Positions 5,966 to 50,804 of a DNA stretch of 64,000 nt are shown here, piece by piece. Source of the stretch: a phage; NCBI GenBank assembly GCA_025284135.1, contig GCA_025284135.1_3646.1; one strand, written 5' to 3'. The notes under the pieces were generated by a model. It did not search any database. It saw nothing but the letters and a program-made list of their open reading frames with translations, and had not been told where the DNA came from. The position numbers and the translations under genes are program-made. Position 1 is the stretch's first letter. Each line of letters begins with the position of its first letter.

Positions 5966-6014
5966 GTGTTGCCAATCTTAATTAGATGTGGTAGAATAGA
6001 GTAATCGGAGATAC

Positions 6015-6045
6015 TAGCCCTCTAACACGAGGGCTATTTTGTTAT
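6015..6045 (+). terminator. terminator-like hairpin
   Basis: AGCCCTC-N6-GAGGGCT followed by ATTTTGTT. Confidence 0.4.
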
Positions 6046-6067
6046 ACTGTTTTGAGGGGTAAAGCTT

Positions 6068-7624
6068 GTGTCCAAAAAGAACCGCAGGAAACACAACGCC
6101 ACAGCCAAAACTGTGAATAAATCTGGGAACGCAGGCGCACCAACTCATAATGTTCGTATGAGTGAGATCGGTTCTGGCGCACTTTCCCAAATTATGGCAG
6201 AATCGCAATCTATGATGGTTGAGGAATTGCGTTGGCCTCAGCTGATTGCCACAGTGGAGACTATGAAATGTGATTCCACAGTTGCTACTGCCTTAGATAC
6301 AAAATATGTTTTCATCACGAAAGCATTCAATGATTTTAAGATCCTTTATAATGTTAAAAGTGAAGACTCTAAGAAAGCTGCCGAGCTTATAGAGTATTCT
6401 TTGCGTAATTTGGCAAACCAACAAACTCTTCGAGATATTGCAAGAAGCGCAGCTACCTTTAACGAGTATGGTTTTTCACTGTTTGAGAAAGTATACCGCA
6501 GAGAGAAAGAAGGTAAATATGCCGGGATGCTTCTTATTGATAAAATTGCATTCCGACCTCAGGCCAGTCTGTCCAGATCAGAGCCGTTTGTCTTTGACAA
6601 GAATAGCAGAACACTGACAGGTATTTATCAGTCACCTAATGCATTTCTAAACACTCAGAATGCACGCTGGGCTGGACCTCTTGCTGCAATGCCTTCAAAA
6701 GGCTTTAATGAGCCTGAAATTTTCATCCCTGCTAAAAAGCTTATGCTCATGACCCTGTCAGGAACAGAATCTAACCCTGCAGGTGTGTCACCTATGATAG
6801 GTTGCTACAGATCTTTCCGTGAGAAAGTTCTGATTGAAAACCTTGAGGTTGTTGGCTGTTCCAAAGACCTTGGTGGTGTGCTTGAGCTGAAAATTCCTTC
6901 CAATATTTTGAACAAGGCCAGCATTGACCCTAATTCAATGGAAGGGAGAATGGTTGCAGACCTTATGCTTGACGCAGCAAACGCCCATAGTGGTGAGCAA
7001 AGTTTCTTTATACTTCCGTCTGATAGAGATAAGTCTGGTAAAGAGCTTTACTCCATGACCCTGAAGGGGGTTGACGGTATGGGTAAGCAGTATTCCACTA
7101 AAGATTTGATTGATGCCCGTAAGAAGGCGATTCTTGACCGTTTCGGTGCTGGCTTTATTAACCTCGGTAACGATAACGTTGGATCCTTCTCTCTGTCTGA
7201 GTCAAAACAGTCTATCCATGGTCATTTTGTTCAGCGTGATATAGATATTATCACTGAAGCCTTCAATAAAGATCTTATTCCACAGCTTCTGGCATTGAAT
7301 GGTATCATCCTTGAAGATGATGATATGCCTAAACTGAAACCTGGTCTGATTGAAGAAGTGGATATGGAGAGCTTCTCCAAGTTTGTCCAGAGGATCGGTG
7401 CTGTAGGTTACTTGCCAAAAACTCCTGCAGTAATTAATAAGATTCTTGAAGTAGGTGGGTTTGATGAAAGATTTGACGAGGACATGGATCAGGAAGAGCT
7501 GATGAAGCTCTTGGGCCAGGACATCAGTAGGGCTGGTGATGGAATGGCTGCAGGATCCACTGGTAACGGCACTTCTAAGATGTCATCAACCAGAGATAAT
7601 TCCATATCCAACATGGAAAATTAA
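6068..7624 (+). CDS. portal protein (518 aa)
   Basis: Large ORF directly after terminase; size and position typical of a portal; GTG start with GAGGGG RBS. Confidence 0.65.
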   Translation: MSKKNRRKHNATAKTVNKSGNAGAPTHNVRMSEIGSGALSQIMAESQSMMVEELRWPQLIATVETMKCDSTVATALDTKYVFITKAFNDFKILYNVKSEDSKKAAELIEYSLRNLANQQTLRDIARSAATFNEYGFSLFEKVYRREKEGKYAGMLLIDKIAFRPQASLSRSEPFVFDKNSRTLTGIYQSPNAFLNTQNARWAGPLAAMPSKGFNEPEIFIPAKKLMLMTLSGTESNPAGVSPMIGCYRSFREKVLIENLEVVGCSKDLGGVLELKIPSNILNKASIDPNSMEGRMVADLMLDAANAHSGEQSFFILPSDRDKSGKELYSMTLKGVDGMGKQYSTKDLIDARKKAILDRFGAGFINLGNDNVGSFSLSESKQSIHGHFVQRDIDIITEAFNKDLIPQLLALNGIILEDDDMPKLKPGLIEEVDMESFSKFVQRIGAVGYLPKTPAVINKILEVGGFDERFDEDMDQEELMKLLGQDISRAGDGMAAGSTGNGTSKMSSTRDNSISNMEN

Positions 7625-35664: not shown

Positions 35665-35693
35665 TTGACTATTGTTACAAAATTTGGTAAAAT
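35665..35693 (+). promoter_or_regulatory. sigma70-like promoter TTGACT-N17-TAAAAT (TGG before -10)
   Basis: Near-consensus hexamers with extended -10-like TGG. Confidence 0.5.
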
Positions 35694-35726
35694 ACCTTGT
35701 AGAGATTTTCATACCGGAGGAGTGAC

Positions 35727-37217
35727 GTGGCTAAGTATGGATTGACAGAGGCTGGTTTCGTTATACCAACCCTAAATGACCTAATCGTTGAAACTAAGCA
35801 AAGCCTGATCCGTGCTTTTGGCGAAAACTTCAACGTACAGAGTAACTCCGTTGCAGATAAGCTGACCACTATCTTCAACGAGCGAGAGTATCAACTTATT
35901 CTTATGGCAGCATCTGTATATGCATCACAGACGCTGTATGGGGCAGAAGGTATTTACCTAGATGAGCTTCTTGGAAGACAGGGTATTTACCGAAGAGGCC
36001 GTTCTAAATCATCAGGTACCTGCCAGTTGACAATCAACACAACTGTGCCGTACAATATGATTTATGATTCCAAAACTTATACGCTGGACAGTGGCAACTT
36101 TGTTCTTAGCAACGATGTGCAAGTAGCAGGGAATCTTATTGCTCACAGAATAAATGCTCCAGACCTAAGGATTGGGAAATACAACTTCCAAATTACCAAC
36201 CAGACAGATGGAAGTATCAAAACAAAAAGCCTGGTTTTAACAGATAAGTCTCTGGACTCTTCTGATTTGCCAAGCTTTTACGGAGAGATTAAGCAATTCA
36301 TTGTCGATAATACAACTCTGTTGAACGACGATTTGATTCAAATCGATATGTTGACAGGAACGTTGTGGATAGGGTACAATTCGAATCTTGATCAGGTTGG
36401 ACTTAATAGTAGGGTAGATTTCAGAGTATCCCCGATTGTAGGGGAAAGAACTATCACTCTAGATGTTATCGCTAACGAGGCTGGTGAGCTGTCAAGGGAG
36501 GCAGAAACCGTGACAACAATGTCGCCTACCCCCAGCGGATTTATTAAGCTTACCAACCGAGAAAGATTCAATGAGGGAAGGGATGTTGAAAAAGACTCAG
36601 AGTATCGCTTAAGAGCTTCCAGCACAAAACAGTTAACATCGAAGGCTACCCGTCCTGCAATCCTTAGCGCTGTAAGCGAGGTAAAAGGTGTTGAGAAAGT
36701 GAGAGTGTTCTCCAACAACACCGATAAAACTGATGCTAAAGGTATACCTCCTTACAAGTTCCAAGTGGTTGTGTTTGGTGGTGCAACGGAGGACATTTGC
36801 CAAGCACTTTACCAAACTATAGCCTGTACGAACAGGACTTATGGTAATATTTTCTACGATATCGCTACATCTGACGGTCAAACTGAAAGAATTTATTACT
36901 CCAGGGCAAATACCTACCGCCTAGATGTAAGAATTACCTATTCCGGCGCTGCGCTTTCCACAACCGAAAAAGATGCCATTGTAGAGGCTCTTTTGCAGGT
37001 TGTTAACGGACTTGATGTTGCAGATACGTTGTACAATATCCAATTGGTCGGTGCTGCATCCGCTGCTGTGTCGATAGGTAGATTTAATAGACTGGTAATT
37101 CAAGTTAAACCAGTAGGAGCTTCTGATGAAGCTTACACGACAAACGATATTGTTGCGAACATGACCGAGGTGTTTGACCTCGACGAAAGTAATATAACTT
37201 TCCAACAAACTATTTAA
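35727..37217 (+). CDS. virion/tail-fibre module protein (496 aa)
   Basis: GTG start with GGAGG RBS; lies in fibre module; no diagnostic motif. Confidence 0.4.
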   Translation: MAKYGLTEAGFVIPTLNDLIVETKQSLIRAFGENFNVQSNSVADKLTTIFNEREYQLILMAASVYASQTLYGAEGIYLDELLGRQGIYRRGRSKSSGTCQLTINTTVPYNMIYDSKTYTLDSGNFVLSNDVQVAGNLIAHRINAPDLRIGKYNFQITNQTDGSIKTKSLVLTDKSLDSSDLPSFYGEIKQFIVDNTTLLNDDLIQIDMLTGTLWIGYNSNLDQVGLNSRVDFRVSPIVGERTITLDVIANEAGELSREAETVTTMSPTPSGFIKLTNRERFNEGRDVEKDSEYRLRASSTKQLTSKATRPAILSAVSEVKGVEKVRVFSNNTDKTDAKGIPPYKFQVVVFGGATEDICQALYQTIACTNRTYGNIFYDIATSDGQTERIYYSRANTYRLDVRITYSGAALSTTEKDAIVEALLQVVNGLDVADTLYNIQLVGAASAAVSIGRFNRLVIQVKPVGASDEAYTTNDIVANMTEVFDLDESNITFQQTI

Positions 37218-37228
37218 GGCGGCGAGAT

Positions 37229-37915
37229 ATGGCAGAGATTAAGTCGGATGTTAACCACATCCACACTCTGCCAGATTTTGTTCAGGGAGGTCTTGACTAC
37301 CTACCTGGAGATTTTCTGGCTGAGAAGGTTAATTTAGTCACATTCTTAACCGTATACCTTAAAAGGTTGGAGGATGTTGATAAGATGCTGGTAGGTTTGG
37401 CTGAAGGAAGATTGCTTAACAATGCCAGCGGAAGATACCTTGACGAAGTTGGTAATCAACTTGGTATTCTTAGGAATGGACTTTCAGATGCTGATTTTCG
37501 TGCCACACTAATTATTCAGCAGGCCGCAGCATCAAGGGGCGGGACTCGCGAAGATGTCATCTCCACCTTGCGACAATTGTTCGGAAGAGACAATTTCGAT
37601 ACGTGGAAAGGAGACAACTTCAGGTTTGACATAAATATTAGAAAAACTTGCTTTGACATATTGCAGTCTATCGATCAGATCTTAGATATGCTACCATTAC
37701 CTTGTCATTTGCGTCTTACAGAATCGCAAGGGCAAGCTTTTGGTTTTGAAGGGGACTCTACAGCTCTTGGCTTCGGATCAGTGTGGGAAGAAAACCAATT
37801 CGGAGTTGGTGGGCTGGCTACTTTGCTATATGTTCCTGACGTAAGACCTGATTGGGACACCACAACCATTTATTGTGAAAGTATTACAGTAAACGCAACT
37901 AGACAGGAGGGTTAA
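37229..37915 (+). CDS. tail-fibre module protein (228 aa)
   Basis: Position; start of next gene overlaps its stop. Confidence 0.35.
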   Translation: MAEIKSDVNHIHTLPDFVQGGLDYLPGDFLAEKVNLVTFLTVYLKRLEDVDKMLVGLAEGRLLNNASGRYLDEVGNQLGILRNGLSDADFRATLIIQQAAASRGGTREDVISTLRQLFGRDNFDTWKGDNFRFDINIRKTCFDILQSIDQILDMLPLPCHLRLTESQGQAFGFEGDSTALGFGSVWEENQFGVGGLATLLYVPDVRPDWDTTTIYCESITVNATRQEG

Positions 37916-39987
37916 TGGCAACAGCTGTTTTTAAACCTTACCGTGATTACTCTACAATGGCTGCACAGTTTCATTACCGAACAGTTCAGGATACTGCCGT
38001 TCCTGGTAGGGATTATAATCATGTTGAGGGCGATGTAACTATCCCAATTGGGGCAACCAGTATTGAAATCCCAGTGGAAATTGTTGACAAATTACCCAAC
38101 AGGTTACCAAGAAGCTTCTTTATGGAGTTTTCATCAAAATCTCAAGGGGTGATGATTGGGACACAAAGGGCAAAATGTACAATAGTTTCAGATGAGAATC
38201 TTGACAGGATATCTTGGGATACTGTTGAGGAGAGAATGTTTCACCCAAGATATTGGGTTACAAATACTCAGCAGACTGAAAGTACCTGTATTGTTGCAGA
38301 TGACAACTGTTGTATTAACCGTTTAGTGTCAAGAACATATGGAGGTATGGCTGGGTGCATTTGGGAAACAGTTGACAAGTATGACCATTTCGGTATTGGG
38401 TTTGATGATCACTATGAGATGAGAAACACCAAGCTTTGGTTCAGAATGTCAATAACCAATGCCAGCAACTTCTCCACCCCTGAAAAGATGATTATGACTG
38501 TAGACCTTGTCGATGGCACAATCATCTATGTTCCTTTAGCTCAATATGCTGTCAGCATCTCAGAGGATAAGAATGTTGCAGAAATTCATATTGATTTTGA
38601 GGACTGCGTCGGGATGGACCAGAACAACAACATGATGGGTGTTGATCCTCGGCAGGTTAGAAGGATTTTAATACCACTCATGCCTAAAGACTGGGTAAGT
38701 AATAGCACAGACCCGAGAACGGAAAATGTAGAGTGTGAGTTGCGCCTAGATTTGCTTCAGCCAGACACAGGCTGGAAAATGATGCAACTTAACAATATTC
38801 AGGTGAGAGAGCACGACGTTGGGATCTGCACCGCATATGACGATATGTGGAACGTATCCCCTTTAAGGGTGTTGAACAATATCAAGCGTCTGGGCTATAC
38901 CGGAACCATAAACCATTATGTTGGTATGAGTCATTATTATGACTACACATGGTCAGGAACTCAATGGTCTATAAACAGAACAGGAGCGCTAAACGCTGCA
39001 GCTTATAAATGGCATGATGATTTTATGTACAATGCCAAACGACATAACTTCGACGTTATGCAATCTGTAAGTTTTGAGCTTTTCAGCGATGCCTGCCCGT
39101 TGGAATGGACCCAAAGAGACTGGAACGATAACTACGCTAAAACAGGGTATACACCTTGTAGCTACCTCCTGTCTCCAACCATTGAAGAGGGTATGAATTT
39201 CCTTACTGCAGTATTTAAGAATTTTGCATCAGCCGCTATGAGAAACAACCTGCCAGTGATTATGCAGGTTGGTGAACCGTGGTGGTGGTACAATACCGAT
39301 ACTCGTAGACCTTGTATTTATGATTACCCTACAAAACAGGCGTTTTATGATGAGACAGGCGAGTATGCATTAGATATTGGGACTATTGACGATCCTAAAA
39401 CTGGCGGTGTTTACGATAAGTATGTAGCATTTTGTCGTGGTAAGCTTGGCGCTCGTATTGCGGCTATTTCAAAGGCAATAAAGGCACACGCTGCATCAGC
39501 TCAGATGACAGCTCTGCTGTTTTTCCCAACCATTATGGAAACCGAGCTTACGCAAAAGCTTAACCTTGCTGACCAATATAAAAAGGAAGCAGGTGCTCTT
39601 GATTTCTTCTGCACCGAGTGCTACGATTGGGTGATGCAGGGAGGTATTGAAAAGGCAAAAGAGTCTGTAAACATACCTATCGTTAAGTTAGGTTGGCAAC
39701 CGTCTGAAATACAATACCTTGCAGGGTTCGTTCCTAGTAAAGAGCTTGCTCCGGTATATGGCTACGACCCAACCAGGAATTACCAAGAATTTTTATGGAG
39801 ATGTATTTGCGGAAACATGGCAACTATAGAGTATAGATACCCTGAGGTAAAACAGTATGTGTGGGCATACCCGCAAGTAATGTCTGACAGCATCACTGTT
39901 ACCGCTAGAGATTCTACCGTGCTTCATATGGGGCAGGTTGCTCTGAAAGGGTATGTAGAAGATGTTGTCCCGCCAGACTTCTCATAA
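37915..39987 (+). CDS. tail-fibre module protein (690 aa), Trp/Tyr-rich, possible enzymatic domain
   Basis: Position; composition; no confident motif. Confidence 0.4.
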   Translation: MATAVFKPYRDYSTMAAQFHYRTVQDTAVPGRDYNHVEGDVTIPIGATSIEIPVEIVDKLPNRLPRSFFMEFSSKSQGVMIGTQRAKCTIVSDENLDRISWDTVEERMFHPRYWVTNTQQTESTCIVADDNCCINRLVSRTYGGMAGCIWETVDKYDHFGIGFDDHYEMRNTKLWFRMSITNASNFSTPEKMIMTVDLVDGTIIYVPLAQYAVSISEDKNVAEIHIDFEDCVGMDQNNNMMGVDPRQVRRILIPLMPKDWVSNSTDPRTENVECELRLDLLQPDTGWKMMQLNNIQVREHDVGICTAYDDMWNVSPLRVLNNIKRLGYTGTINHYVGMSHYYDYTWSGTQWSINRTGALNAAAYKWHDDFMYNAKRHNFDVMQSVSFELFSDACPLEWTQRDWNDNYAKTGYTPCSYLLSPTIEEGMNFLTAVFKNFASAAMRNNLPVIMQVGEPWWWYNTDTRRPCIYDYPTKQAFYDETGEYALDIGTIDDPKTGGVYDKYVAFCRGKLGARIAAISKAIKAHAASAQMTALLFFPTIMETELTQKLNLADQYKKEAGALDFFCTECYDWVMQGGIEKAKESVNIPIVKLGWQPSEIQYLAGFVPSKELAPVYGYDPTRNYQEFLWRCICGNMATIEYRYPEVKQYVWAYPQVMSDSITVTARDSTVLHMGQVALKGYVEDVVPPDFS

Positions 39988-39999
39988 TCAGGAGATAAA

Positions 40000-41040
40000 A
40001 TGTCAAAACCTAGTTTTCCATTAGAGATTTGGGCAGAGGAGGATCAGGTTCTGCCTAACACCCACAGACAGAACAGGCTACGCCCGATTGATGATTTGTG
40101 GAGAAAAGGTTGGGATCTTGGTCAAAAGCCCTCATGTGAAGAACTTAACTATATTTTCAATATGCTCGGAACTTGGGCAAAATACATTGCTGACGAGCAG
40201 ATCCCCGCTCAAGAAGGCCGTTATCTGGTACGTGATAATAACTTGAGTGATCTTTTGAACATCCCTGTTGCCCGTAGAAACCTTGGGATTATTACCAAGG
40301 AAGAGGCAGACGCCAGGTATGTAAAAGTTACAGGTGATACAATGACAGGCCCATTGGGTTTGCAACGTATCAACTTTAAGGCTGCCGAGACAGATAAGGC
40401 TTGGATAGAGACAACTATTGGCCCAGATAAGACAACTCTCGACTTCGGGTTAAGTGATAATATTGGGTCGTTTGATGATGGTGGTACATCTACAGTAGAT
40501 GCGTTTCGTTGGAGATTCCAGCCAACTCAGCCGGATATTAATCCAGAGTTCACTTTGATGTACCTTAACGCGATCACGGCGAACCGTGCGCTGTTGAAAG
40601 TGGTAGGCAATGTTGAAGTTGTCGATAACATGAGGTGCAATAACCTTACTATCAGCAATACAGCAACATTCACCAACTGTAATGTGGCTAGTCAGTTGAC
40701 GGCTGGGTCAGTATATGTTAATGGTGGTGCAAGTTGTGACAGCATGGTTGTAAGAAGTCAGCACTGTGTTGTCGGTAACAGAAATGTGGTTCGCTCTGTG
40801 AACGGAGTGACGGCTAACGGTAACGGTGATGTAACGATCACTATCCCGCAGACAGGTGTGCAAGACATCAGAATCGGTGCAAGACTTGTTGACGGCGTTT
40901 CTGAATCTCCAATTCGCAACGGCTACGTTGTCACAGGCTGGCATTTCGGTGACAAAAAAGAGATGCGTGGTTCAACCTACTGGGCAGGACCTTTACAAAA
41001 ACTTGTAAATGGTCAATGGATCACTGTTAATTATGCATAG
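40000..41040 (+). CDS. tail fibre / receptor-binding protein (paralog 1)
   Basis: Followed by a Tfa-like chaperone; paralogous throughout to ORF 42055 (shared FRWRFQP, LNAITANRA, C-terminal FVNGQWITVNYA). Confidence 0.6.
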   Translation: MSKPSFPLEIWAEEDQVLPNTHRQNRLRPIDDLWRKGWDLGQKPSCEELNYIFNMLGTWAKYIADEQIPAQEGRYLVRDNNLSDLLNIPVARRNLGIITKEEADARYVKVTGDTMTGPLGLQRINFKAAETDKAWIETTIGPDKTTLDFGLSDNIGSFDDGGTSTVDAFRWRFQPTQPDINPEFTLMYLNAITANRALLKVVGNVEVVDNMRCNNLTISNTATFTNCNVASQLTAGSVYVNGGASCDSMVVRSQHCVVGNRNVVRSVNGVTANGNGDVTITIPQTGVQDIRIGARLVDGVSESPIRNGYVVTGWHFGDKKEMRGSTYWAGPLQKLVNGQWITVNYA

Positions 41041-41054
41041 ATCGGAGGACTAGC

Positions 41055-41639
41055 ATGAAAATACTTCAAGAGTTTAAACTTTACCAACCGGGATCTGGCG
41101 AATACCACGCCAACAAGGAAACCAAAGAGCTGACCCCTCAAGAGGTTGAGGATTACACCGCATACACTGGGTATTTTTTACGTAATGATGATGGCGATTG
41201 GTATGTGCAGTCACGAACATTACGACAAGAAAATCCGGGTTGTATCTTCCTACTTGTTGACGAGAAGGGAATTCTTAAGACATCTACAGAAGAACCTGAT
41301 GCCTTATGGCCTGCTCCAGGTCTTCGTGTGGTTATCGCCAAAAAAGAAGAGGTACCAGAAAACATTATGCTTCACCACGACGCTTTGCGTTTAGTTGGTG
41401 ATGAATTTGTCACAGATAATGAATTCTTTGTTCAACAGGCAGAGGGTGTCATAGAGACAGAACTTGCTTGGGCTACTGCTAGAATTGGTGCCTATCAAGA
41501 CATGATTGACCTTGAATATGATCTTACTGATGACCAGAAACGTAACATCAGGGATTTGAAAATGTACAGGGTAAAACTTCTTGAAATAGATACATCTAAA
41601 GCCCCTGACATTTTCTTCCCGGAGCGACCTACCCTCTAA
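41055..41639 (+). CDS. tail fibre assembly protein (Tfa-like chaperone)
   Basis: C-terminal DDQKRNIRDLKMYRVKLLEIDTSKAPDIFFPERP matches the conserved Tfa C-terminal signature. Confidence 0.7.
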   Translation: MKILQEFKLYQPGSGEYHANKETKELTPQEVEDYTAYTGYFLRNDDGDWYVQSRTLRQENPGCIFLLVDEKGILKTSTEEPDALWPAPGLRVVIAKKEEVPENIMLHHDALRLVGDEFVTDNEFFVQQAEGVIETELAWATARIGAYQDMIDLEYDLTDDQKRNIRDLKMYRVKLLEIDTSKAPDIFFPERPTL

Positions 41640-41650
41640 GAGGAGGTGTT

Positions 41651-41965
41651 GTGGAGTTGGATTTGGCGGCATTGTACGGTATCTGCATGGGTACCGTTGT
41701 CCCGATCTGTGTATGGGCTTTCAACCAGTGGCACACTAAATGGAAAGGTATTTCCAAGAGGTTGGATGAACTGGAGAAAGACCTCATCTTAGTGAAAAAC
41801 AGTATGGTTACAAAAGATAAACTTGATTCCGTTATCGAGACCCGGTTAAGCAAGCTAGAGGCCGATATTAACGACCTTAAGCAGGATGTCAGGACAGATG
41901 TCTCCGGTATCCGAGCTGATGTACAAAAGATTTTGCACATGCTTGTAGAGCATAGTAAAAGGTAA
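41651..41965 (+). CDS. small single-TM protein with C-terminal coiled coil
   Basis: TM segment LAALYGICMGTVVPICVWAF; GTG start with GAGGAGG RBS. Confidence 0.4.
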   Translation: MELDLAALYGICMGTVVPICVWAFNQWHTKWKGISKRLDELEKDLILVKNSMVTKDKLDSVIETRLSKLEADINDLKQDVRTDVSGIRADVQKILHMLVEHSKR

Positions 41966-42054
41966 ACAAAGGTCAGAACGGAAAGGACTCCGTTCTTGCA
42001 TTTTGTTCTCTAAAGTGTTAAAATAGTCCTAAGGAATTTTCTCAGGAGAACGTG

Positions 42055-43098
42055 ATGACTAAACCAGTTATCCCTCTTGATATTTGGGCCAATCAGGATG
42101 TTGTGCTTGAAAATACGGGAGAGTTGAATAAGTCTCAACCAAAAAAAGAAGATAGATTGAAAGGTTGGGATATGACACAAAGAATGGCATGTGAAGTTGT
42201 TAACTTTGAACTTCACATGCTTTCTGCGTGGTTGAAGCATTTAACAGAAGATGTTGTCCCGGGATGGGATAATAGATTCTTAAGGGTCACTAATAATCTA
42301 GCAGACGTTCCAGACAAAGCTGCTGCACGTCAAGTTCTCAATGTATACTCGCCTGAAGAAATGGACGATCTATATGTTGACAAGTCTGGAGACATAATGA
42401 CTCAGACTCAAACTTTAGGTCTTCAAAGAATCGAGTTTGCATCTGCGTCAACAGACAATGCGGCAATATATACCACCATAACTCCAGACAAGACGACAAT
42501 GGACTTCTGGATTATGGACAACATCGGCGGTGCTGACGGCACAGACCTTGATGATCCTTCTCACCAAATAGACGGGTTCCGTTGGAGATTTCAACCTTCT
42601 GGTGGTCAGCCTGTGTTTTCGGCTATGAAGCTCAATGCTATAACTGCCAACCGTGCAAGACTGGCTATCCAAGGAAATCTTGAATGCAACGATGCAAAAA
42701 GTTCCTCTGCAAATGCCAATGCGGTCACGATACCAAGAGCCACTGTTAACGGACAACAGTCCTGCGGAAGCGCTCAAATAGGTGAAAGAGTTGATTGTAA
42801 CGATGAAACCGTTAGGGGCCAATATGCAACAGTCGGTGGAAGAAACGTGGTCCGTAGGGTAAATGGTAGTAGCGCAGACAGTAGTGGTAACCTTACTATT
42901 CCTATGCCTAGTAGGGGTGTTGAAGATGTAAGGATAGCAAACCGTTTCAGAACCACCTACAGAGAATCAAGAGTATACCCTGGGCATGTAATGTGCTCCG
43001 GCAATTACGCCTATAAACACCCGTATCAGGGCGACTATTGGACTGGAGCCATTCAAAAATTTGTAAATGGTCAATGGATCACTATATCTTATGCTTAA
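42055..43098 (+). CDS. tail fibre / receptor-binding protein (paralog 2) (start moved to ATG 42055)
   Basis: Paralogous to 40000-41040 over full length; C-terminal FVNGQWITISYA. Confidence 0.6.
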   Translation: MTKPVIPLDIWANQDVVLENTGELNKSQPKKEDRLKGWDMTQRMACEVVNFELHMLSAWLKHLTEDVVPGWDNRFLRVTNNLADVPDKAAARQVLNVYSPEEMDDLYVDKSGDIMTQTQTLGLQRIEFASASTDNAAIYTTITPDKTTMDFWIMDNIGGADGTDLDDPSHQIDGFRWRFQPSGGQPVFSAMKLNAITANRARLAIQGNLECNDAKSSSANANAVTIPRATVNGQQSCGSAQIGERVDCNDETVRGQYATVGGRNVVRRVNGSSADSSGNLTIPMPSRGVEDVRIANRFRTTYRESRVYPGHVMCSGNYAYKHPYQGDYWTGAIQKFVNGQWITISYA

Positions 43099-43109
43099 AA
43101 AGAGGGTAA

Positions 43110-43376
43110 ATGAAACTAACTCAGTTTTTATGGGGACTGGTTGCGGCATCTGATGACCCTACGAAAGTGTCCCAATCTAAGCTATGGTCGAATATAGGCA
43201 TGGCGGTGATGACTGGGGTGTTTATTCATATGGGGTATAATGATACGCTTCCGGAATGGTATGCGTGGATATACGCACCTTCAGTAGCCTGCCCCCAGCT
43301 TATTAGCAAATTCATCTCGCTCCGGTGGGGTTGCCAGCACCCTGACCACGTTAAAAACGAAGAGCAAAAAGCTTAA
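43110..43376 (+). CDS. small membrane protein (holin candidate)
   Basis: Two hydrophobic segments (LTQFLWGLVAA; IGMAVMTGVFIHMGY), charged C-terminus; 88 aa. Confidence 0.35.
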   Translation: MKLTQFLWGLVAASDDPTKVSQSKLWSNIGMAVMTGVFIHMGYNDTLPEWYAWIYAPSVACPQLISKFISLRWGCQHPDHVKNEEQKA

Positions 43377-43385
43377 GGAGAAATC

Positions 43386-45131
43386 ATGGCGCAAGACATG
43401 ACAAGCTTTGAGCAGGCGGTAGATCAAGTAATTGTTGATTCTGAACGTTTGCACTTGGTTGTCAACGGTAACGCTGTGGATGAAGTTGTCGTAGAGGATG
43501 GGACCACCATCCCTACGGTACGAAAAGCCATGCTTGACAACCTTTATTTTAAAACGCCACCGATCCCTTGGGCGTATGGTGCATCCACAACAGTTTTTAA
43601 CCAGCTGTATGAGTTTAAAGGGGACACAGGCCCTCAATGGTGGTACGCTCCCGCAGCATCAAAATCTAACCCGGTTAGAATGCCAGCAGATCCTTCACAA
43701 TCTCCAAACTGGAGATTATACACCGACTCTGCAGTAATGGCAAAATACTACGCAAAACTTAACAGCCCAAGGTTCGAAGGTGACCCGCGAGTACCTACAC
43801 CTCCAATGGACGATAAGTCTGAGTCTATAGCAAACACAGAGTTTGTTGTTGACTATGTGGATAGCATATTTAAAGCCATGGAGGGGATGAAAGTTACTGT
43901 AGGGTCTTTGGTGGTAAAAGGTCTTACAGAACTAGCTAACACCATAGTTGGGGGCACCCTTACCTTACATGGGCCTGTTAATGGAGCAGATTCTACTGCA
44001 CGCTTCAGGAACCTAATCCTCACGGCAAATACTTCTACACTTACTTTTGCGTGGAGCGATCCTAAGCATGCAGACTGGAGAAGCACAGAGCTGCAACCTC
44101 ATGAAGTGTCCACCCACAGGGTTATAGCTGACACTATAACCTCTGGGAAACCAGTGGCTAATAATAACGATGTACATTTTGATGGTCTGGGTAATAACTT
44201 TTTTGACTACGTGTACATTCGTGGTAATGCCATGAAGGCAGCAACCGAACCTACATTGCAGGTCGATGGGACCGCCAGGGTTAAGAACCTTGAGGTGACA
44301 GGCACCGTTACAGGGATAACCTACTCTGTCGATGGTACCATGATCTACCCTAGCTATATTGAAAGCACGGGTGATGCATTGATAAATGGCGATTTAGAGG
44401 TTGGTGGGTCTGTAGTTATTCGAGGTACAGCCTCTATCCAAAACATAGCTCTGAACACTCTGAGAGTCAATGAGCGTGCAACTTTTGAAGGGGAAGGGCT
44501 TACAGCTAACAAAGGCATAATTACCGAGCTGACAACAACTACTTTAACTGCAACAACTGCAAACTCTGAAAACTGCAACGTTACCAGAAACTTGCAGGTA
44601 AACGGCGATGTTAGCTTAAATGACAACGGCACAGGAACAACACGCCTTCATAACCTTGAAATATCCGGCACAGTGACTGGGTGGCTGCCAGACTTCTCTA
44701 ATGTCAATTTTGTTTGTAATGGTATTAACTCCAGCGGTAAGATAACCACCTCTCAAGGAATTGAGGCTGGTAAAACCATCACTGCCCCTACTTTCCACGC
44801 AGGAAAAGTAGACTTTGACTTAGAGGAGGTTGACGCATCTAGTGGGATATGGACACCTAACGGGCAGGCCAGTATGTATGTTGTCCACGCTAAAGGGGAT
44901 TTTACAATAGGGCAGTGGCCTGGGACATCAGCGGAAGATAAACCTTATCCATTCACTGCAGTTATCTATGTCATTCAGGATGCCGTAGGTCACAACGTGA
45001 CTTTGCACGATAAGTATGCTATCCTGTCGGCAACACCTGTTATTAACAACAAGGCTAACAGTGTTACCCTGCTGCAATTAACATATTGTGGTGTTGGTGA
45101 TATCGTAGACGTGGTAATTGCACAACGTTAA
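43386..45131 (+). CDS. tail fibre-like protein (581 aa)
   Basis: Gly/Thr/Asn/Val-rich beta-type repeats typical of fibre shafts; position. Confidence 0.5.
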   Translation: MAQDMTSFEQAVDQVIVDSERLHLVVNGNAVDEVVVEDGTTIPTVRKAMLDNLYFKTPPIPWAYGASTTVFNQLYEFKGDTGPQWWYAPAASKSNPVRMPADPSQSPNWRLYTDSAVMAKYYAKLNSPRFEGDPRVPTPPMDDKSESIANTEFVVDYVDSIFKAMEGMKVTVGSLVVKGLTELANTIVGGTLTLHGPVNGADSTARFRNLILTANTSTLTFAWSDPKHADWRSTELQPHEVSTHRVIADTITSGKPVANNNDVHFDGLGNNFFDYVYIRGNAMKAATEPTLQVDGTARVKNLEVTGTVTGITYSVDGTMIYPSYIESTGDALINGDLEVGGSVVIRGTASIQNIALNTLRVNERATFEGEGLTANKGIITELTTTTLTATTANSENCNVTRNLQVNGDVSLNDNGTGTTRLHNLEISGTVTGWLPDFSNVNFVCNGINSSGKITTSQGIEAGKTITAPTFHAGKVDFDLEEVDASSGIWTPNGQASMYVVHAKGDFTIGQWPGTSAEDKPYPFTAVIYVIQDAVGHNVTLHDKYAILSATPVINNKANSVTLLQLTYCGVGDIVDVVIAQR

Positions 45132-45138
45132 TATATCT

Positions 45139-45168
45139 AACCGCTCCTGACGGGGCGGTTTTCTTATC
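45139..45168 (+). terminator. terminator-like hairpin
   Basis: ACCGCTCC-TGAC-GGGGCGGT followed by TTTCTTATCT. Confidence 0.45.
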
Positions 45169-45179
45169 TGGAGAACACA

Positions 45180-48100
45180 ATGCTTCCAATCCCTTTGCTA
45201 AAACTTGGTCGTCATTTCCTCGATAAGAGGGGTGGAATTAAGGAACTTGCTGTTCTGTCATACCCAATAGACAACAGTGACGGTACAAGCACTACAGTAT
45301 CCTATGTAAACAGCTTGGCTATACTTTTTGACGATGGTCAACTTAATATTACGGGCTATAACAAGTTCGGGGAGTGTCGCACTGGGGATCGTAACCCTAT
45401 AAACTACCCGAGCGAAACAGCATGGAATGTTGATCATGTGTGGAGAGCAGACCGTGCGTTTGTGATCCGAACTTTTGATAATCAGTTTTTCTACATCGGC
45501 TGCACTGCAGGGCTTATTGGATCTGATGCTGCAGGTGGTAATGATGTTTGTGTAAGGGAGTGGACACCTCTTCCTGAACAGATTGTTAAAGGGTTGCACC
45601 TTGACACCCACCCGGAGCGCCTTGTTGAGGTGATGGGTGGTATTAACAACACTGTCTGGGTTATTGCAGAGGCAGAAGGCACAGGCATACTGAATCTGTA
45701 TGGGTCTGGTAACAACACCTACGGATCTTTGCATGTAGATAAAAATCAGCATGCAACCCCTGTAAAGATTGGTGAGACATCGGAAAATCCTGAAACAGGC
45801 CCTTGGAAAAACCCAAGCATTAACTGCGAGGTGCATGACAACTCTGTTATTTTCGGTGGTCCTAGAGGTTTCTGGATTGCTGGATACGACTTTCTGAGAA
45901 ATAACAGTAGAAACGACCTTGTTTGGCCTCCTGTGCAGATTACTCGTAACGATTTGAGAGGCATTCCTGCAGATGAGGAGTGGAAAGGGTTTATGTGTGG
46001 TCCTAACGGGGCAATAATCGCCACACAGAGGATGCACACACCCAATGACCAGCAGCTTGTTAACGTATTCTACGGGCAAGACGTCTGGGGAGATGACACA
46101 TGGCGTTCCTTAAATATCACCTACACCCATGAGGTGATAATGGCTCGTGGATACGGCACAAGTGGCATTTTCTTCAATAATGGCACTAAGCAGTATCGTG
46201 GATTCTCTCGCAACTTGTGCAATGATATTGGTGCACAATCTGCAAACAATAGCCCTAGGGCTAATTTTATCCACTATCGGGCTCTTGCTACAGCTAAATA
46301 TGTTGAGCAACGCCTGCCAGTTAGCTGGACAGAGAGTGTTTATTTCCAAGGCATTCACAGGGAAGGTTTCTTAGGAACCTTTACTGTTGTTAATGGCAAA
46401 CTTTGGTGGTCAGGCATCCCAAGGGGAAGTTTTGCAGGCTCTAACAACCTGTTTGGCGGCAGACTTAATAGTCAGGGGTTCACAGAGGTTCCTGAGAATT
46501 GGTATAAAAATGTCCCGGTAGATAGTTGGGGTGTTGATGATATTTTCGACGTTAACGGTGTTAGCAGCGTTAGCAATATTTACATTGGTGACACGGTCAA
46601 GATGAAATTGAAGCCTCAGCCAGAGGGGGCTACGTTCATTATTGACAAGATTGAACTGGTAAATGCTGCAGGCACGGTTGTTACAGATGCAAATTACCAA
46701 TTCTCCACCAACTGGAACCACGGCGGGGCCAACGAAGTTGTTGTTACCCAGTATAACAGAAATGTTAACAGACGTGGCCTGTACTCTGTAAAAATAACCT
46801 ATCATGACAAGCATGGCACAGGCAGAACTCACACAACAAGGACTTTGAACTGGAACACCATAGTTCCTGCGTATCCGTCCAACGGCAAGTGGCATACTGT
46901 CGGTAGAAACAAACAGTTCCATGTCAACAACACTGTATACTTTGGACTGAATGGGGCTCAGCCTGTAGTAGAAGGTGATACAGCATACATGGTCAGACTA
47001 CATAGAATGGATGCTGGATCAGCCACGTATGATGTTACCCAAGAGATTTATGATCAGCGACGAAATACTTACAACAACTTGGTGCAGACACAAGCTGTAT
47101 GGGAGTTCAATCCTAACGGCAGAGGTGGTAAAATGTTACAGGTTAACGAGCAAAACGGAACATCGTTGACTGTCCACGAACACCCAGACCCTTGGCGTGA
47201 TCCTGGAAAACCTAACCCAGGCGCTCGTACACTGAAAATTGTCAGCCATGATGTAGGATATTTCGGAATACGCTGGGAAGCTACAGTAAGATATGCCGAC
47301 GGGACGACAAACAATATTGGGATCACCCTTGGTGGCACTAGTGAGGATAACTCACTGAAAATTGCCTATACACCTAGAGGAATCTCTATTGATAGTATGG
47401 ATGTTGTTCGCAACGGTTACGGCGATGTGAATGTCAAAGTTACTCTTGGCGAACATCTTGGTGGGGAAAGGATCATCATGTATGCCTTTGATCATGACCC
47501 TCGCACCAATGGAACCTATGCAGACCAAGCATGGAGTTACCTGATAAGCGCACCTGAGCCAAATACTAAAGAATTCTACTATGGTATGAAACGAGATGTG
47601 TGCAAGAAAACAGGAACACATGACTGGATTGCTATCTGCGTTAAAGATGAACGAACAGCTTGGGATGAGCCTGTTAACAGATGGTTCATAGGAATTCCTG
47701 CCCGAAGTGATAAATATGTTGAAGAATATATTGTGTGCATGGGAGGCACCAACCTGAACTTGTGTTGGAACGAGGATGCAAACAAATACTCTGATTATGA
47801 CTATATGCGGGACTATTCTTGCAATCAGTGGTTTAACCAACCCGGATATGCTGATCGACAGGCAAGGGTGAATCCTGCAATCTTTACAGATACACAGGTT
47901 TTCTTGACAAAACAGGCTAACGAGGTTCAGACCTTCAAGAACAAATACGATCCTAACAAGTGGTTTTATAACTGTTATGGCGCATTTTTCTGGGGTCCTG
48001 GCGAACTACCTAATGGAGGATCTTGCTTCGAGGCTGCAACTTACGCCAGTGACAGGTTTATGGGGCAGGTTAAGAAGTACAAGATAATCCCCGGTCCTGA

Positions 48101-50804
48101 AACTCTGGGCAATGCCGTTGACCCTTATATCGTCATGACTGTGCTGAGATCAAACATGGATGGGACATCCATGTCTATGCAAGTTCCAGTAACAAACGGG
48201 TACAAACGTGTTGTGATGATCATTAAGTGCGACTTAATAGGTAAGCAAGTTCTTGCAGAAAACGGAACCTCAACACATTTATTCGAGACTGCTCTGCATT
48301 ATCAGTTTGCTGATTCACCTTTTGCAGGGGATAAGAGAATATCTGATACAGACAATGCTCGATGCAAGAAATTTATGCTTGGTGGTGGATGGTGGTGGTA
48401 TGAATTTGATTTAACAGACAAATTCACTGACACGTCTAAAGTGGTGACAGGGCTTCGTCTAGATCTTGGCGAAAACATGCACAAAAGTGTTTGTGATGGC
48501 ACCTACGGTGACCCAACAATCTACTTAAAGTATGTTTCTTTTGAGCACCCAGAGGATGTCGTTTATGGTCCAAAACTGAGACTGTTTGGCAATTGGATTG
48601 CTAAAGACAGGGCAGGTATGGGTAAAAAGGTAAGAGGGTTCTTAGTGGATGCAGGAACAGAAGACATGTTGGTTAATGCAGTGTGGCCTGAATTACCGGG
48701 AACTCAGTGGGACAACTCTGCTAAATCTATAAACTGGTTCAACATTCACAGAGCTATGTGGACAACTAACTGCTACCTGTGGAAAGAGTTGAATGACGGC
48801 GCTTTCGGGTTTACAGGTGGCAGAAGAATGGCAATCATCTGCTGGACAACGCTGCAAAGATGTTATGACCATGACTACGAGATTGGAGGTAGGGCATGGA
48901 AAAATATTAGAGATAGAATCATAACTAACTTCGCAGACCCTAATGGTGGTGGAGCGTATGGCTTCGACTGCAGCAGGCTCATCCATTTGAACGGGTCCTC
49001 TGCATATAAGAAAGAGGGTTACTCTGGGTCCATGATTGAGTGGGGTCTGGTGAAAGATGCTCGCGTATTGATGGGTCAACAACTTGCTGCTGCAATAGGA
49101 CCGAACGCAGTACAATCTGTTAAACCAGCGTGGTTCGATATCCCATTATGGTCCTCTGGAACACCAGGAACTGCTGTGATCAACCCTACCACTGGGGATC
49201 TGGAAATCTCTTGGGAGGACTTGAAGCAGGTCGGTGGTTGGGACAAAACAGGGTATCAGGTTCAATGGTGGAGGGCTGATGGATCTTTAGCCGCTGATGA
49301 GTTTGTTAGGGACAATTTCTACACCATGTCCTCTGCAAAAGCACAACAACTGTTCGGTCAGGCTACCCCGTCAACGATCACCATGTCCATGTGCTGTAAA
49401 GACAACAGGACTGGAGCTTTGGGGCCAAGGGTTGCTAAAGTTTTCTCAGGTATCAAATGGAATCTTCCTGTTCAAAGTGTTGCATGGAAGCAAATAGGTG
49501 ATAACAAGCTGCTGGTTACTCCTGCTTGTCAGTTCAACGCAACTCTTAACGTTGATCCTGCTGTTGCGGCAAACTCAGCTAAAGCTTCTGACTTCTCTGT
49601 GTCTAACACTGCTATGGCAGATGTGAGGAAGATTGACACGCTGAACGCCAGAATTACCTGTAAAAACACTTATGGCACATTCCAGATCATCAACAACTTC
49701 ACAGACGCGGACTCTAAGGTAGTGAGGACAGCAAGCCAGACTCTGAGTTTAGGAACTCTGGCCTATGCGGCCCTGATCACTGAACAGTCAGCAACACTCC
49801 AAGGGGGTGGTGTAGGCAAGTCCATTACAACACCTGTGTGGAAGCCAAATGAGTGGGTTGTGTTTGATTTGACTGTAGACTTCTCCAGCGATAATAACTG
49901 GACATGGGTAAGGAATTGTTTGTCACAGTTGATGGGCGGTCCAAGCTCCATTAGCGATAGTCACGACTCTACTGACCCGAGTGTGTTCCAGGTAGGCAAA
50001 ACTCACCCGGAGACTGGAGCAACGTTGCCTGACAGGAAGTATGCTTTGGTTTGCATCTCTTACGGGAAGGCAGATGTCACCTTCTCAGGGACACACACTT
50101 ATAACGGAACCTACAATTTCTCAAGGAAGTATAGTCTCAAAGCGGGAAACATTGTAGACGAGGTTGGTGTGCTGTATAATCCTGGCAACGGCATAGGGAT
50201 TGTGGGTGGTAAACTGCAGATGCAGGAACCTTCTATTACCCCTTCCAATGTGTCTGGGATTAGAAAGACTTGGGAAAGCAGTAATACCAACATTGCAACA
50301 GTGGATGCTACCACAGGGCTGGTAACATTTAAAGCTACTGGGAATGTCACCATAAAGTTTGTAGTTACTGATGATGCAGGGCGCAAAACGTCTTCAACAT
50401 CGTTTACTGTCAGACAGATGGCACCTCAGTGGTTTATTTGGGAAGGAAATCCTCTTGACGGGACTTACCCTAGACCTGCAGGAACGTCCAATATGAGGGT
50501 CTTTACCGGTCCGGTCATGGACAATCCGACCACAACCACCAACCCTACATTTTTTGGTGCTTACATACCTGAAATTATTGGCCTACCAAGGAACCAGATA
50601 CAACTGCTTTTCGGAGCAGGTGTTGATGGCCTAGCCACTTTTGGGTACAGTGACAACATCGATGCAGCCAGAAGCTCGGGTTGGATTGGATTTAAGTTCC
50701 AGTGGAACCCTGGTGGTAGAACATTAGGTCTTGCAAGCATAGGTGTTATGCTACCTGGTAACCAGCAATACCATCTCGAAGCTTATACAAACTTCCCTAG
50801 TTAA
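45180..50804 (+). CDS. giant virion-associated protein (1874 aa) with C-terminal bacterial Ig-like (Big_2-type) domain
   Basis: Single uninterrupted ORF; C-terminal ITPSNVSGIRKTWESSNTNIATVDATTGLVTFKATGNVTIKFVVTDDAGRKTSSTSFTV matches Big_2 pattern; ends at a bidirectional terminator. Confidence 0.55.
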   Translation: MLPIPLLKLGRHFLDKRGGIKELAVLSYPIDNSDGTSTTVSYVNSLAILFDDGQLNITGYNKFGECRTGDRNPINYPSETAWNVDHVWRADRAFVIRTFDNQFFYIGCTAGLIGSDAAGGNDVCVREWTPLPEQIVKGLHLDTHPERLVEVMGGINNTVWVIAEAEGTGILNLYGSGNNTYGSLHVDKNQHATPVKIGETSENPETGPWKNPSINCEVHDNSVIFGGPRGFWIAGYDFLRNNSRNDLVWPPVQITRNDLRGIPADEEWKGFMCGPNGAIIATQRMHTPNDQQLVNVFYGQDVWGDDTWRSLNITYTHEVIMARGYGTSGIFFNNGTKQYRGFSRNLCNDIGAQSANNSPRANFIHYRALATAKYVEQRLPVSWTESVYFQGIHREGFLGTFTVVNGKLWWSGIPRGSFAGSNNLFGGRLNSQGFTEVPENWYKNVPVDSWGVDDIFDVNGVSSVSNIYIGDTVKMKLKPQPEGATFIIDKIELVNAAGTVVTDANYQFSTNWNHGGANEVVVTQYNRNVNRRGLYSVKITYHDKHGTGRTHTTRTLNWNTIVPAYPSNGKWHTVGRNKQFHVNNTVYFGLNGAQPVVEGDTAYMVRLHRMDAGSATYDVTQEIYDQRRNTYNNLVQTQAVWEFNPNGRGGKMLQVNEQNGTSLTVHEHPDPWRDPGKPNPGARTLKIVSHDVGYFGIRWEATVRYADGTTNNIGITLGGTSEDNSLKIAYTPRGISIDSMDVVRNGYGDVNVKVTLGEHLGGERIIMYAFDHDPRTNGTYADQAWSYLISAPEPNTKEFYYGMKRDVCKKTGTHDWIAICVKDERTAWDEPVNRWFIGIPARSDKYVEEYIVCMGGTNLNLCWNEDANKYSDYDYMRDYSCNQWFNQPGYADRQARVNPAIFTDTQVFLTKQANEVQTFKNKYDPNKWFYNCYGAFFWGPGELPNGGSCFEAATYASDRFMGQVKKYKIIPGPETLGNAVDPYIVMTVLRSNMDGTSMSMQVPVTNGYKRVVMIIKCDLIGKQVLAENGTSTHLFETALHYQFADSPFAGDKRISDTDNARCKKFMLGGGWWWYEFDLTDKFTDTSKVVTGLRLDLGENMHKSVCDGTYGDPTIYLKYVSFEHPEDVVYGPKLRLFGNWIAKDRAGMGKKVRGFLVDAGTEDMLVNAVWPELPGTQWDNSAKSINWFNIHRAMWTTNCYLWKELNDGAFGFTGGRRMAIICWTTLQRCYDHDYEIGGRAWKNIRDRIITNFADPNGGGAYGFDCSRLIHLNGSSAYKKEGYSGSMIEWGLVKDARVLMGQQLAAAIGPNAVQSVKPAWFDIPLWSSGTPGTAVINPTTGDLEISWEDLKQVGGWDKTGYQVQWWRADGSLAADEFVRDNFYTMSSAKAQQLFGQATPSTITMSMCCKDNRTGALGPRVAKVFSGIKWNLPVQSVAWKQIGDNKLLVTPACQFNATLNVDPAVAANSAKASDFSVSNTAMADVRKIDTLNARITCKNTYGTFQIINNFTDADSKVVRTASQTLSLGTLAYAALITEQSATLQGGGVGKSITTPVWKPNEWVVFDLTVDFSSDNNWTWVRNCLSQLMGGPSSISDSHDSTDPSVFQVGKTHPETGATLPDRKYALVCISYGKADVTFSGTHTYNGTYNFSRKYSLKAGNIVDEVGVLYNPGNGIGIVGGKLQMQEPSITPSNVSGIRKTWESSNTNIATVDATTGLVTFKATGNVTIKFVVTDDAGRKTSSTSFTVRQMAPQWFIWEGNPLDGTYPRPAGTSNMRVFTGPVMDNPTTTTNPTFFGAYIPEIIGLPRNQIQLLFGAGVDGLATFGYSDNIDAARSSGWIGFKFQWNPGGRTLGLASIGVMLPGNQQYHLEAYTNFPS

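Follow-up and report, generated by a model that had tools for sequence, protein, structure and literature searches.

Two paralogous short tail fibre genes, gp33 and gp30, in the late tail-fibre cluster of an rV5-like coliphage

In this study, we describe two similar genes located on a phage DNA stretch of 64,000 nucleotides (contig GCA_025284135.1_3646.1), which is referred to below, at its full length, as the window. The genes lie at positions 40000-41040 and 42055-43098, are called fibre A and fibre B throughout, and correspond to gp33 and gp30 of bacteriophage rV5. Both genes are intact and constrained, and both products are components of the virion. Analysis of the anchor, the tip and the gene neighbourhood of the two fibres indicates that they are probably short tail fibres of the phage Mu S type that arose by duplication in the stem of the genus Vequintavirus, with A as the canonical copy and B as a neofunctionalised duplicate.

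The identity of the locus was determined by a search of a phage database with positions 39500-44000, in which 117 phage records were matched at 92-99% nucleotide identity, 112 of the 117 covering at least 80% of the query. Nearly all of these records were rV5-like coliphages of the genus Vequintavirus. The annotated loci of rV5 and of the BASEL phage HeinrichReichert are collinear with the window, and the genes were on this basis identified as rV5 gp27-gp36. By its sequence, then, the window is that of a Vequintavirus, an rV5-like Escherichia coli myophage, and the two similar genes are its gp33 and gp30. The pair, together with the genes and signals that lie between the two fibres and directly behind the second, is as follows (aa, amino acids; nt, nucleotides; E, expectation value).

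40000..41040, + strand: gp33, short tail fibre A, 346 aa; phrog_4465, E 9e-172
41055..41639, + strand: gp32, tail fibre assembly (Tfa) chaperone; Caudo_TAP, E 8e-12, and phrog_136, E 2e-36
41651..41965, + strand: gp31, 104 aa; transmembrane segment at the N-terminus, the rest coiled-coil-like; phrog_5345
41975..41996, + strand: terminator-like hairpin in the 89-nt gap between gp31 and gp30
42016..42025, + strand: late-promoter-like motif TGTTAAAATA, 30 nt upstream of fibre B
42055..43098, + strand: gp30, short tail fibre B, 347 aa; phrog_4465, E 6e-165
43110..43376, + strand: gp29, 88 aa, weakly hydrophobic; phrog_1322 'membrane protein'

A sequence-only reading of this DNA had described A and B as collinear paralogous open reading frames (ORFs) on the + strand, and this was confirmed by the end-to-end alignment of the two proteins (43% identity, E 1e-94), a similarity well in excess of chance, each of which is also a full-length match to PHROG 4465 'tail fiber protein'. 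For B, the ATG at 42055 is the better start, as an AGGAG precedes it by 6 nt but the GTG at 42052 by only 3 nt. The motifs PLEIWA/PLDIWA, FRWRFQP and LNAITANRA, named in that reading as common to the pair, were found in both proteins, but the C-terminal FVNGQWIT does not occur in A, the end of which is LVNGQWITVNYA. The divergence that had been placed in the central and distal segments is differently distributed, since the central block, at approximately columns 106-210, is the best conserved part of the alignment (43-70% identity in 30-column windows). Weakly conserved columns were found at 46-90 (27-30%), 211-270 (20-30%) and 301-345 (27-30%), and the last approximately 15 residues of A and B are conserved again.

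The Tfa-type chaperone predicted to follow the first fibre gene was recovered at 41055-41639 as a Caudo_TAP/phrog_136 protein, gp32, which is the sole Tfa of the locus. The single-transmembrane protein said to come after it is equally present at 41651-41965, where gp31 is strongly hydrophobic in a single N-terminal segment (Kyte-Doolittle 19-residue mean 1.91), the rest of the protein being helical and coiled-coil-like. The two transmembrane segments ascribed to the 88-aa protein gp29 are two moderately hydrophobic stretches with means of 1.05 and 1.0, under the usual cut-off of 1.6, although it is labelled a membrane protein by PHROG 1322.

The synonymous sites of A and B are saturated (pS 0.86), which makes the duplication old and the dN/dS between the paralogues not estimable; comparisons of orthologues were therefore used instead. 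Against five other Vequintavirus genomes, omega was 0.012-0.048 for A and 0.049-0.067 for B, and no stop codons were found. Purifying selection on either copy is strong. The longest DNA repeat between A and B is 63 nt at 79% identity and is located at the 3' ends of the genes. As to whether only one of the two products enters the virion, a question raised in the sequence-only reading, both gp30 and gp33 were detected in rV5 virions, the proteome of which also contains gp32 (PMC3606486).

In a neighbour-joining tree of 35 homologues, the A and B clades were sisters in 97% of 200 bootstraps and the B branch was much longer, which points to a duplication in the Vequintavirus stem after which B changed faster. 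The gene order, B included, is kept in two divergent clades, one formed by the related contigs L011-L013 and the other by L015 and L017-L020. In the former, B is 78% identical to B of the window, as against about 87-88% for A in the comparison with L011 (A distance 0.14; per-region 73-94%). In the latter, A is 74% and B 45% identical to the window copies. The wide protein search performed with B returned five clusters, and, being word-based, it missed the 45%-identical B of the L015 type, which was found via synteny.

The type of the fibres was examined using phmmer searches against the sequences in the PDB. Residues 1-108 of A matched the short tail fibre of phage phiTE (9CUY chain c, E 1.4e-19), and residues 1-83 of B matched the same structure (E 2.3e-8). 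In phiTE, residues 3-92 of the short fibre constitute a trimeric joint that binds the baseplate wedge (9CUY, PMC11972413). At the other end of the protein, residues 286-343 of A matched residues 440-501 of Mu GpS (5YVQ, E 1.7e-6), and the AlphaFold2 model of A gave one significant Foldseek match, to chain 5yvq_A of the Mu fibre-chaperone complex (E 2.5e-8, probability 1.00). The tip of B aligns to the tip of A at 42% identity. No T4 gp12 chain was present among the phmmer matches with E <= 1 or among the 50 best Foldseek matches of the A model. These matches suggest that A and B are short fibres of the Mu GpS type, presumably trimeric, with an N-terminal anchor of the wedge-docking type and a small Mu S-type tip.

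Phage phi92 gp147 is homologous to the fibres described here at the N-terminus and, strongly, at the tip. In a 2026 cryo-electron microscopy study (PMC13450770), gp147 is 'fibre III', present as six downward-pointing trimers on the wedge protein gp145 and proposed to mediate irreversible binding; this short fibre attaches to gp145, a homologue of gp36. In our comparison gp36 of the window and phi92 gp145 were 32% identical over the full length (E 1e-67), which identifies them as homologues. The N-terminal anchor is shared with both phi92 gp147 and phiTE gp236, and the tip with phi92; in both phages the fibre gene is flanked by the wedge genes upstream and a Tfa gene downstream, and the fibre points downwards and is proposed to bind irreversibly. 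Each of them has one such gene and six trimers per baseplate, whereas two paralogues are present here. The phiTE fibre is moreover longer (554 aa), includes Ig-like domains and a coiled coil, and has flagella as its proposed target. T4 gp12 has the same proposed role, namely irreversible binding to the core of the lipopolysaccharide (LPS) and signalling to the baseplate, but it is encoded by a single gene and uses the chaperone gp57A in place of a Caudo_TAP protein, and the HHpred similarity of gp30 and gp33 to it, reported by Kropinski et al. in 2013 (PMC3606486), was not reproduced by phmmer or Foldseek.

With regard to gene position, fibre A has kept the place between wedge and Tfa, with gp34 standing between gp35 and A, an arrangement also found in phage Av-05. 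Fibre B is located two genes further on than the Tfa-adjoining place of A, no Tfa follows it, and the gene directly 3' of it encodes the 88-aa protein, which has no similarity to Tfa.

The two copies were then compared at the alignment columns conserved in at least 85% of 25 homologues from outside Vequintavirus. The counts for each region, in the residue numbering of A, were as follows.

Residues 1-65: 30 conserved columns, of which 29 are kept in A and 15 in B
Residues 66-118: 22 conserved columns, 16 kept in A and 15 in B
Residues 119-200: 13 conserved columns, 11 kept in A and 11 in B
Residues 201-290: 17 conserved columns, 13 kept in A and 14 in B
Residues 291-346: 7 conserved columns, 7 kept in A and 6 in B

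These counts show that the asymmetric change of B is concentrated in the baseplate anchor, where the PIDDLW motif has been lost. Several of the B-type anchor replacements recur in the B orthologues of L011 and L015, and at P19E, W34R, Y51F and Y62H the B proteins of the rV5 clade and of the L011 clade carry the same replacement. At the tip, the A sequence GW.FG.KKE.RG is of the type seen in the outgroups and in phi92, and the B sequence, CSGNYAYKHPYQG, is derived in the rV5 and L011 clades.

The origin of the arrangement was investigated using relatives with a single fibre, namely Av-05 (Avunavirus), NINP13076 and EspYZU14 (Seunavirus), KpS8 (Mydovirus) and one metagenomic contig. Their gene order is fibre - Tfa - orf104 - orf157 - orf88 - 581-aa fibre. 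Homologues of gp31 (about 33% identity) were found at the same position in Av-05, NINP13076, EspYZU14 and KpS8, and gp29 is 51-58% identical to the same-position orf88 of the single-fibre genera. As homologues of both are kept in genera with one fibre, gp31 and gp29 are ancestral neighbours and not accessories of a fibre cassette. B occupies the exact slot of orf157, which in the single-fibre relatives encodes a 157-aa polytopic membrane protein. A tblastn search of the window revealed no remnant of orf157 better than E 0.07, and orf157 is present in 107 phage records of other genera, none of the matches listed being a Vequintavirus.

Small membrane or hydrophobic proteins thus form a trio in the tail-fibre cluster of Vequintavirinae, consisting of a 104-aa protein with a transmembrane segment and coiled coil, the 157-aa polytopic protein and one of approximately 88 aa, and it is the middle member (orf157; positions 5949-6422 of the Av-05 sequence, L002) that has been lost in Vequintavirus. 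Pfam and NCBIfam scans of the 104-, 88- and 157-aa proteins gave only sub-threshold coiled-coil noise, and the sole functional hint is a sub-threshold XhlA-like match of the 104-aa protein (E 0.016). The members of the trio could be lysis-timing, superinfection-exclusion or assembly factors.

The two fibre genes had been interpreted from the sequence as alternative cassettes, and a check for the presence or absence of one cassette in related genomes had been proposed. Close matches to A were found in 116 records and to B in 117, and no record carried a single module save some of 3-6 kb; among the records inspected, these short records were the only ones in which all or part of one fibre copy was missing. 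Both fibres were intact in every full genome compared, and the same accessory genes stand in the same order in the single-fibre genera, so the cassette interpretation was not sustained. The accompanying proposal of duplication and divergence on one strand, as opposed to an invertible segment, agrees with the lack of flanking inverted repeats, with the ribosome binding site that each gene has of its own and with the sister relationship of the A and B clades. Between 39000 and 45500, the longest inverted-repeat arms were 20 nt at 80% identity and none that flanked either gene was significant. A scan restricted to the ten ORFs of 35727-50804, which are of structural or unknown families, gave no match to a recombinase of the Gin/Cin family. 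An invertible segment of the type of the Mu G segment or P1 C segment was rejected, since there are no meaningful inverted repeats in 39000-45500 and both genes are complete on the + strand.

Mu combines a constant N-terminal exon with two C-terminal segments that can be inverted (S/U and S'/U' of the G segment), each with a chaperone. The segments are switched by the Gin invertase, and each virion carries one variant. The pair described here resembles Mu GpS/GpU (5YVQ) in the tip, which is shared with A, in the Caudo_TAP chaperone directly downstream and in the two fibre variants per genome. Unlike Mu, it is made up of two complete genes on one strand with one chaperone, both products are present in the virion, and the larger asymmetric change is N-terminal.

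The genes on either side of the pair are listed below.

35727..37217, + strand: gp36, baseplate wedge subunit; Pfam Baseplate_J, phrog_6
37229-37915: gp35, baseplate protein
37915..39987, + strand: gp34, 690-aa N4 gp65-like receptor-binding protein, directly upstream of fibre A
43386..45131, + strand: gp28, 581-aa tail fibre protein, downstream of B; phrog_4549, E 2e-248
45180-50804: gp27, 1874 aa, which closes the late cluster

In gp34 the Pfam domains NCTSP_N, TIM-barrel_NCTSP (E 4e-80) and Calx-beta were identified, the NCTSP_N and TIM-barrel domains being those of the N4 gp65 'non-contractile tail sheath protein'. Recent literature has tied the deacetylase-domain fibre of the gp34 type to the ECA/NGR glycan receptor. 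The gene is found at the same position in Av-05 and not at that position in Seunavirus or Mydovirus. Homologues of gp28 have precomputed assignments to Pfam Phage_phiTE_241_N/C. The gp27 protein has a Big_2 Ig-like domain near the C-terminus and an N-terminal region that resembles a tail protein PHROG, and its gene varies in length or is split in related contigs (475 + 183 + 1209 aa in L011).

Putative expression signals were located in the gap in front of B. The hairpin at 41975-41996 has a stem of 8-9 bp followed by a T-rich tail and scores on both strands, and a hairpin was also predicted at the equivalent site in the related sequences L001, L008 and L009. The Murica record annotates a terminator near the same place. 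Six copies of the motif TGNTAAAATA are present in the window, always on the + strand, which is the coding strand of the late genes (7664, 12191, 15713, 29868, 35685 and 42016), where 0.9 occurrences were expected and none of 100 shuffles reached six, and at least four of the sites lie 30-45 nt upstream of the start of a listed ORF. The copy at 35685-35694 precedes gp36, the copy at 42016 precedes B, and no further copy was found between 42025 and 50804. The motif matches the rV5 late motif TggTAaAAtA (PMC3606486), which is T4-late-like although rV5 is devoid of homologues of T4 gp55, gp33 and gp45. Upstream of B it is conserved as TGCTAAAATA in L011, L015, L017 and L019. From this layout, A would be transcribed with the wedge genes and the chaperone, from gp36 to gp31, and B would head a unit with gp29, gp28 and gp27.

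The following course of events is proposed. One ancestral fibre gene would have been duplicated in the stem lineage of Vequintavirus, and the extra copy would have taken the slot of the 157-aa membrane-protein gene, two genes downstream. A would have kept the ancestral sequence and position and be expressed within the wedge-fibre-chaperone unit; B, with a late-promoter-like motif of its own, would have evolved faster and now head the gp30-gp27 fibre unit, its changes being greatest in the baseplate anchor and, among rV5-clade phages, in the receptor-binding tip. Short fibres of two kinds would then be displayed together on the virion, A on the canonical site of the wedge and B on a site that is modified or different, and gp32 may fold both of them via the conserved last 15-20 or so residues, YW.G..QK.VNGQWIT. 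In the rV5 clade, irreversible binding to two LPS core variants could follow from the differing tips. We regard a docking of B different from that of A, and a gp32 that works for both fibres, as most likely, and dual receptor specificity is plausible for the rV5 clade, where the tips differ.

Several observations weigh against this account. B lacks its own chaperone, and its tip gave no direct match to Mu GpS in the phmmer search of PDB sequences. The AlphaFold2 monomer models of A and B are of low confidence (predicted local distance difference test, pLDDT, 63 and 60; predicted template modelling score, pTM, 0.32 and 0.27, respectively), as would be expected of trimeric fibres. The neighbour-joining tree was built on simple distances, and consensus matching is all that identifies the promoter and terminator. 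In the L015/L017-L020 clade, the tip of B is 87-95% identical to the tip of A from the same genome. The last 15 codons of A and B in this clade are 100% identical in protein and 26-40% identical at third positions, and patches of 93-100% nucleotide identity between A and B lie farther from the 3' end (L019), which we read as strong selection on the extreme C-terminus combined with short gene-conversion tracts. An assembly artefact in L015 (coverage 1.5) was considered as a source of the identical tips and rejected, as four long IMG/VR contigs show the same. With tips so nearly identical in a sister clade, differing receptor specificity is not the general reason for the two copies, and differing tips are a feature of the rV5 clade. 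Even there, Maffei et al. found no allelic variation in either paralogue and all of the phages tested needed the same LPS core glucose (PMC8594841), so that one shared receptor fits as well as two. A knock-out of either gene or a Vequintavirus baseplate structure was not found in the literature searched, and the roles of the two fibres are experimentally unseparated.

The B fibre may have been re-targeted on the virion without being a receptor variant, its second docking site lying on another wedge conformer or on another fibre. We hold this to be possible, if somewhat doubtful; it draws on the 15 of 30 anchor positions kept in B against 29 of 30 in A, on the place of B at the head of the unit with gp28 and gp27, and on the gp33-like tip in the sister clade. 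If it is true, the virion would have a second ring of short fibres (12 trimers) or a branched fibre, and the selected trait would be avidity or geometry and not a second receptor. The main rival to the neofunctionalised duplicate is competition for one and the same docking site, whereby trimers of A and B would share the six wedge sites in a stochastic mix per virion, as a form of bet-hedging against variation in the LPS core. The same phiTE anchor is a homologue of both N-termini, the family-invariant residues P4, P7, W11, A12, L18, N25, P29, G37, D39, E47, N50 and W59 are common to both, and phi92 and phiTE have only six short fibre trimers per baseplate. Yet B has replaced 15 of the 30 conserved anchor positions, PIDDLW included, and several of the replacements are common to the B proteins of the rV5 and L011 clades, which looks like adaptation to another interface and not like drift; competition for the same sites is on balance unlikely.

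A single kind of short fibre could also be built from both gene products as A/B heterotrimers, in keeping with the collinearity, the near-equal lengths, the shared central block and C-terminal end and the one chaperone encoded. Such mixing is very improbable for proteins of only 43% identity with indels in the shaft, whose genes apparently belong to separate transcription units; the homologues in sister genera act as a single gene and presumably form homotrimers. We know of no precedent for heterotrimers in the Mu S/P2 H family. Interchangeable host-range modules, in which each fibre would bring its own accessories (Tfa and the single-transmembrane protein with one, the two-transmembrane protein with the other), have in their favour a gene order that superficially reads as a fibre with accessories, twice over. 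The occurrence of orf104 and orf88 in the same order in single-fibre genera, the counts of 116 and 117 records and the lack of inverted repeats leave that explanation with very little credence. That B is a redundant or decaying duplicate with no distinct role would fit its rate of evolution, about twice that of A by the comparison of the window with L011, but it is contradicted by an omega of 0.05-0.07, by the lack of stops and frameshifts in five genomes, by its retention in three clades between which identity has fallen to 45-78% and by detection in virions, and we consider it close to untenable. The reading of B as a neofunctionalised second fibre beside a canonical A is accordingly preferred.

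The pair itself has been described before. Kropinski et al. (2013, PMC3606486) reported rV5 gp30 (347 aa) and gp33 (346 aa) as tail fibre proteins that are 42.3% identical, and proposed two LPS chemotypes as their targets (PMC3606486). Maffei et al. (2021, PMC8594841) described them as short tail fibre paralogues that bind the LPS core and placed them in relation with Mu GpS/GpU and with the one short fibre found in phi92-like phages (PMC8594841). The rV5 genes are the same as those of the window, with the same lengths (346/347 aa), approximately 42-43% identity and the same chaperone in between, and there is no essential difference. The paralogue pair and its proposed dual LPS specificity are thus already published, in 2013 and 2021, for a genus that has been sampled very well, and the published interpretation is also that of the sequence-only reading. 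This study adds the replacement of orf157, the asymmetry of the gp30 anchor, the separate late-promoter-like motif and the homogenisation of the tips in a sister clade, all of which refine the existing picture.

The database search also brought up about 16-21 unannotated GenBank records named 'Campylobacter phage' (MG065644-MG065682, host C. jejuni), which are 97-98% identical to rV5-like coliphages at this locus. The C. jejuni host labels of these records appear doubtful, or the preparations may have been contaminated.

Few E. coli phages are isolated as often as those of the rV5 type, which are candidates for use in therapy and in O157:H7 biocontrol. It is probably through their short fibres that the irreversible contact with the LPS core, the trigger of contraction, is made. 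Which of the paralogues makes this contact, and where on the baseplate each of them is located, therefore matters for the engineering of host range and for predicting resistance through mutations of the LPS core, and the anchor-specific divergence of B turns what the second copy adds into a concrete question.

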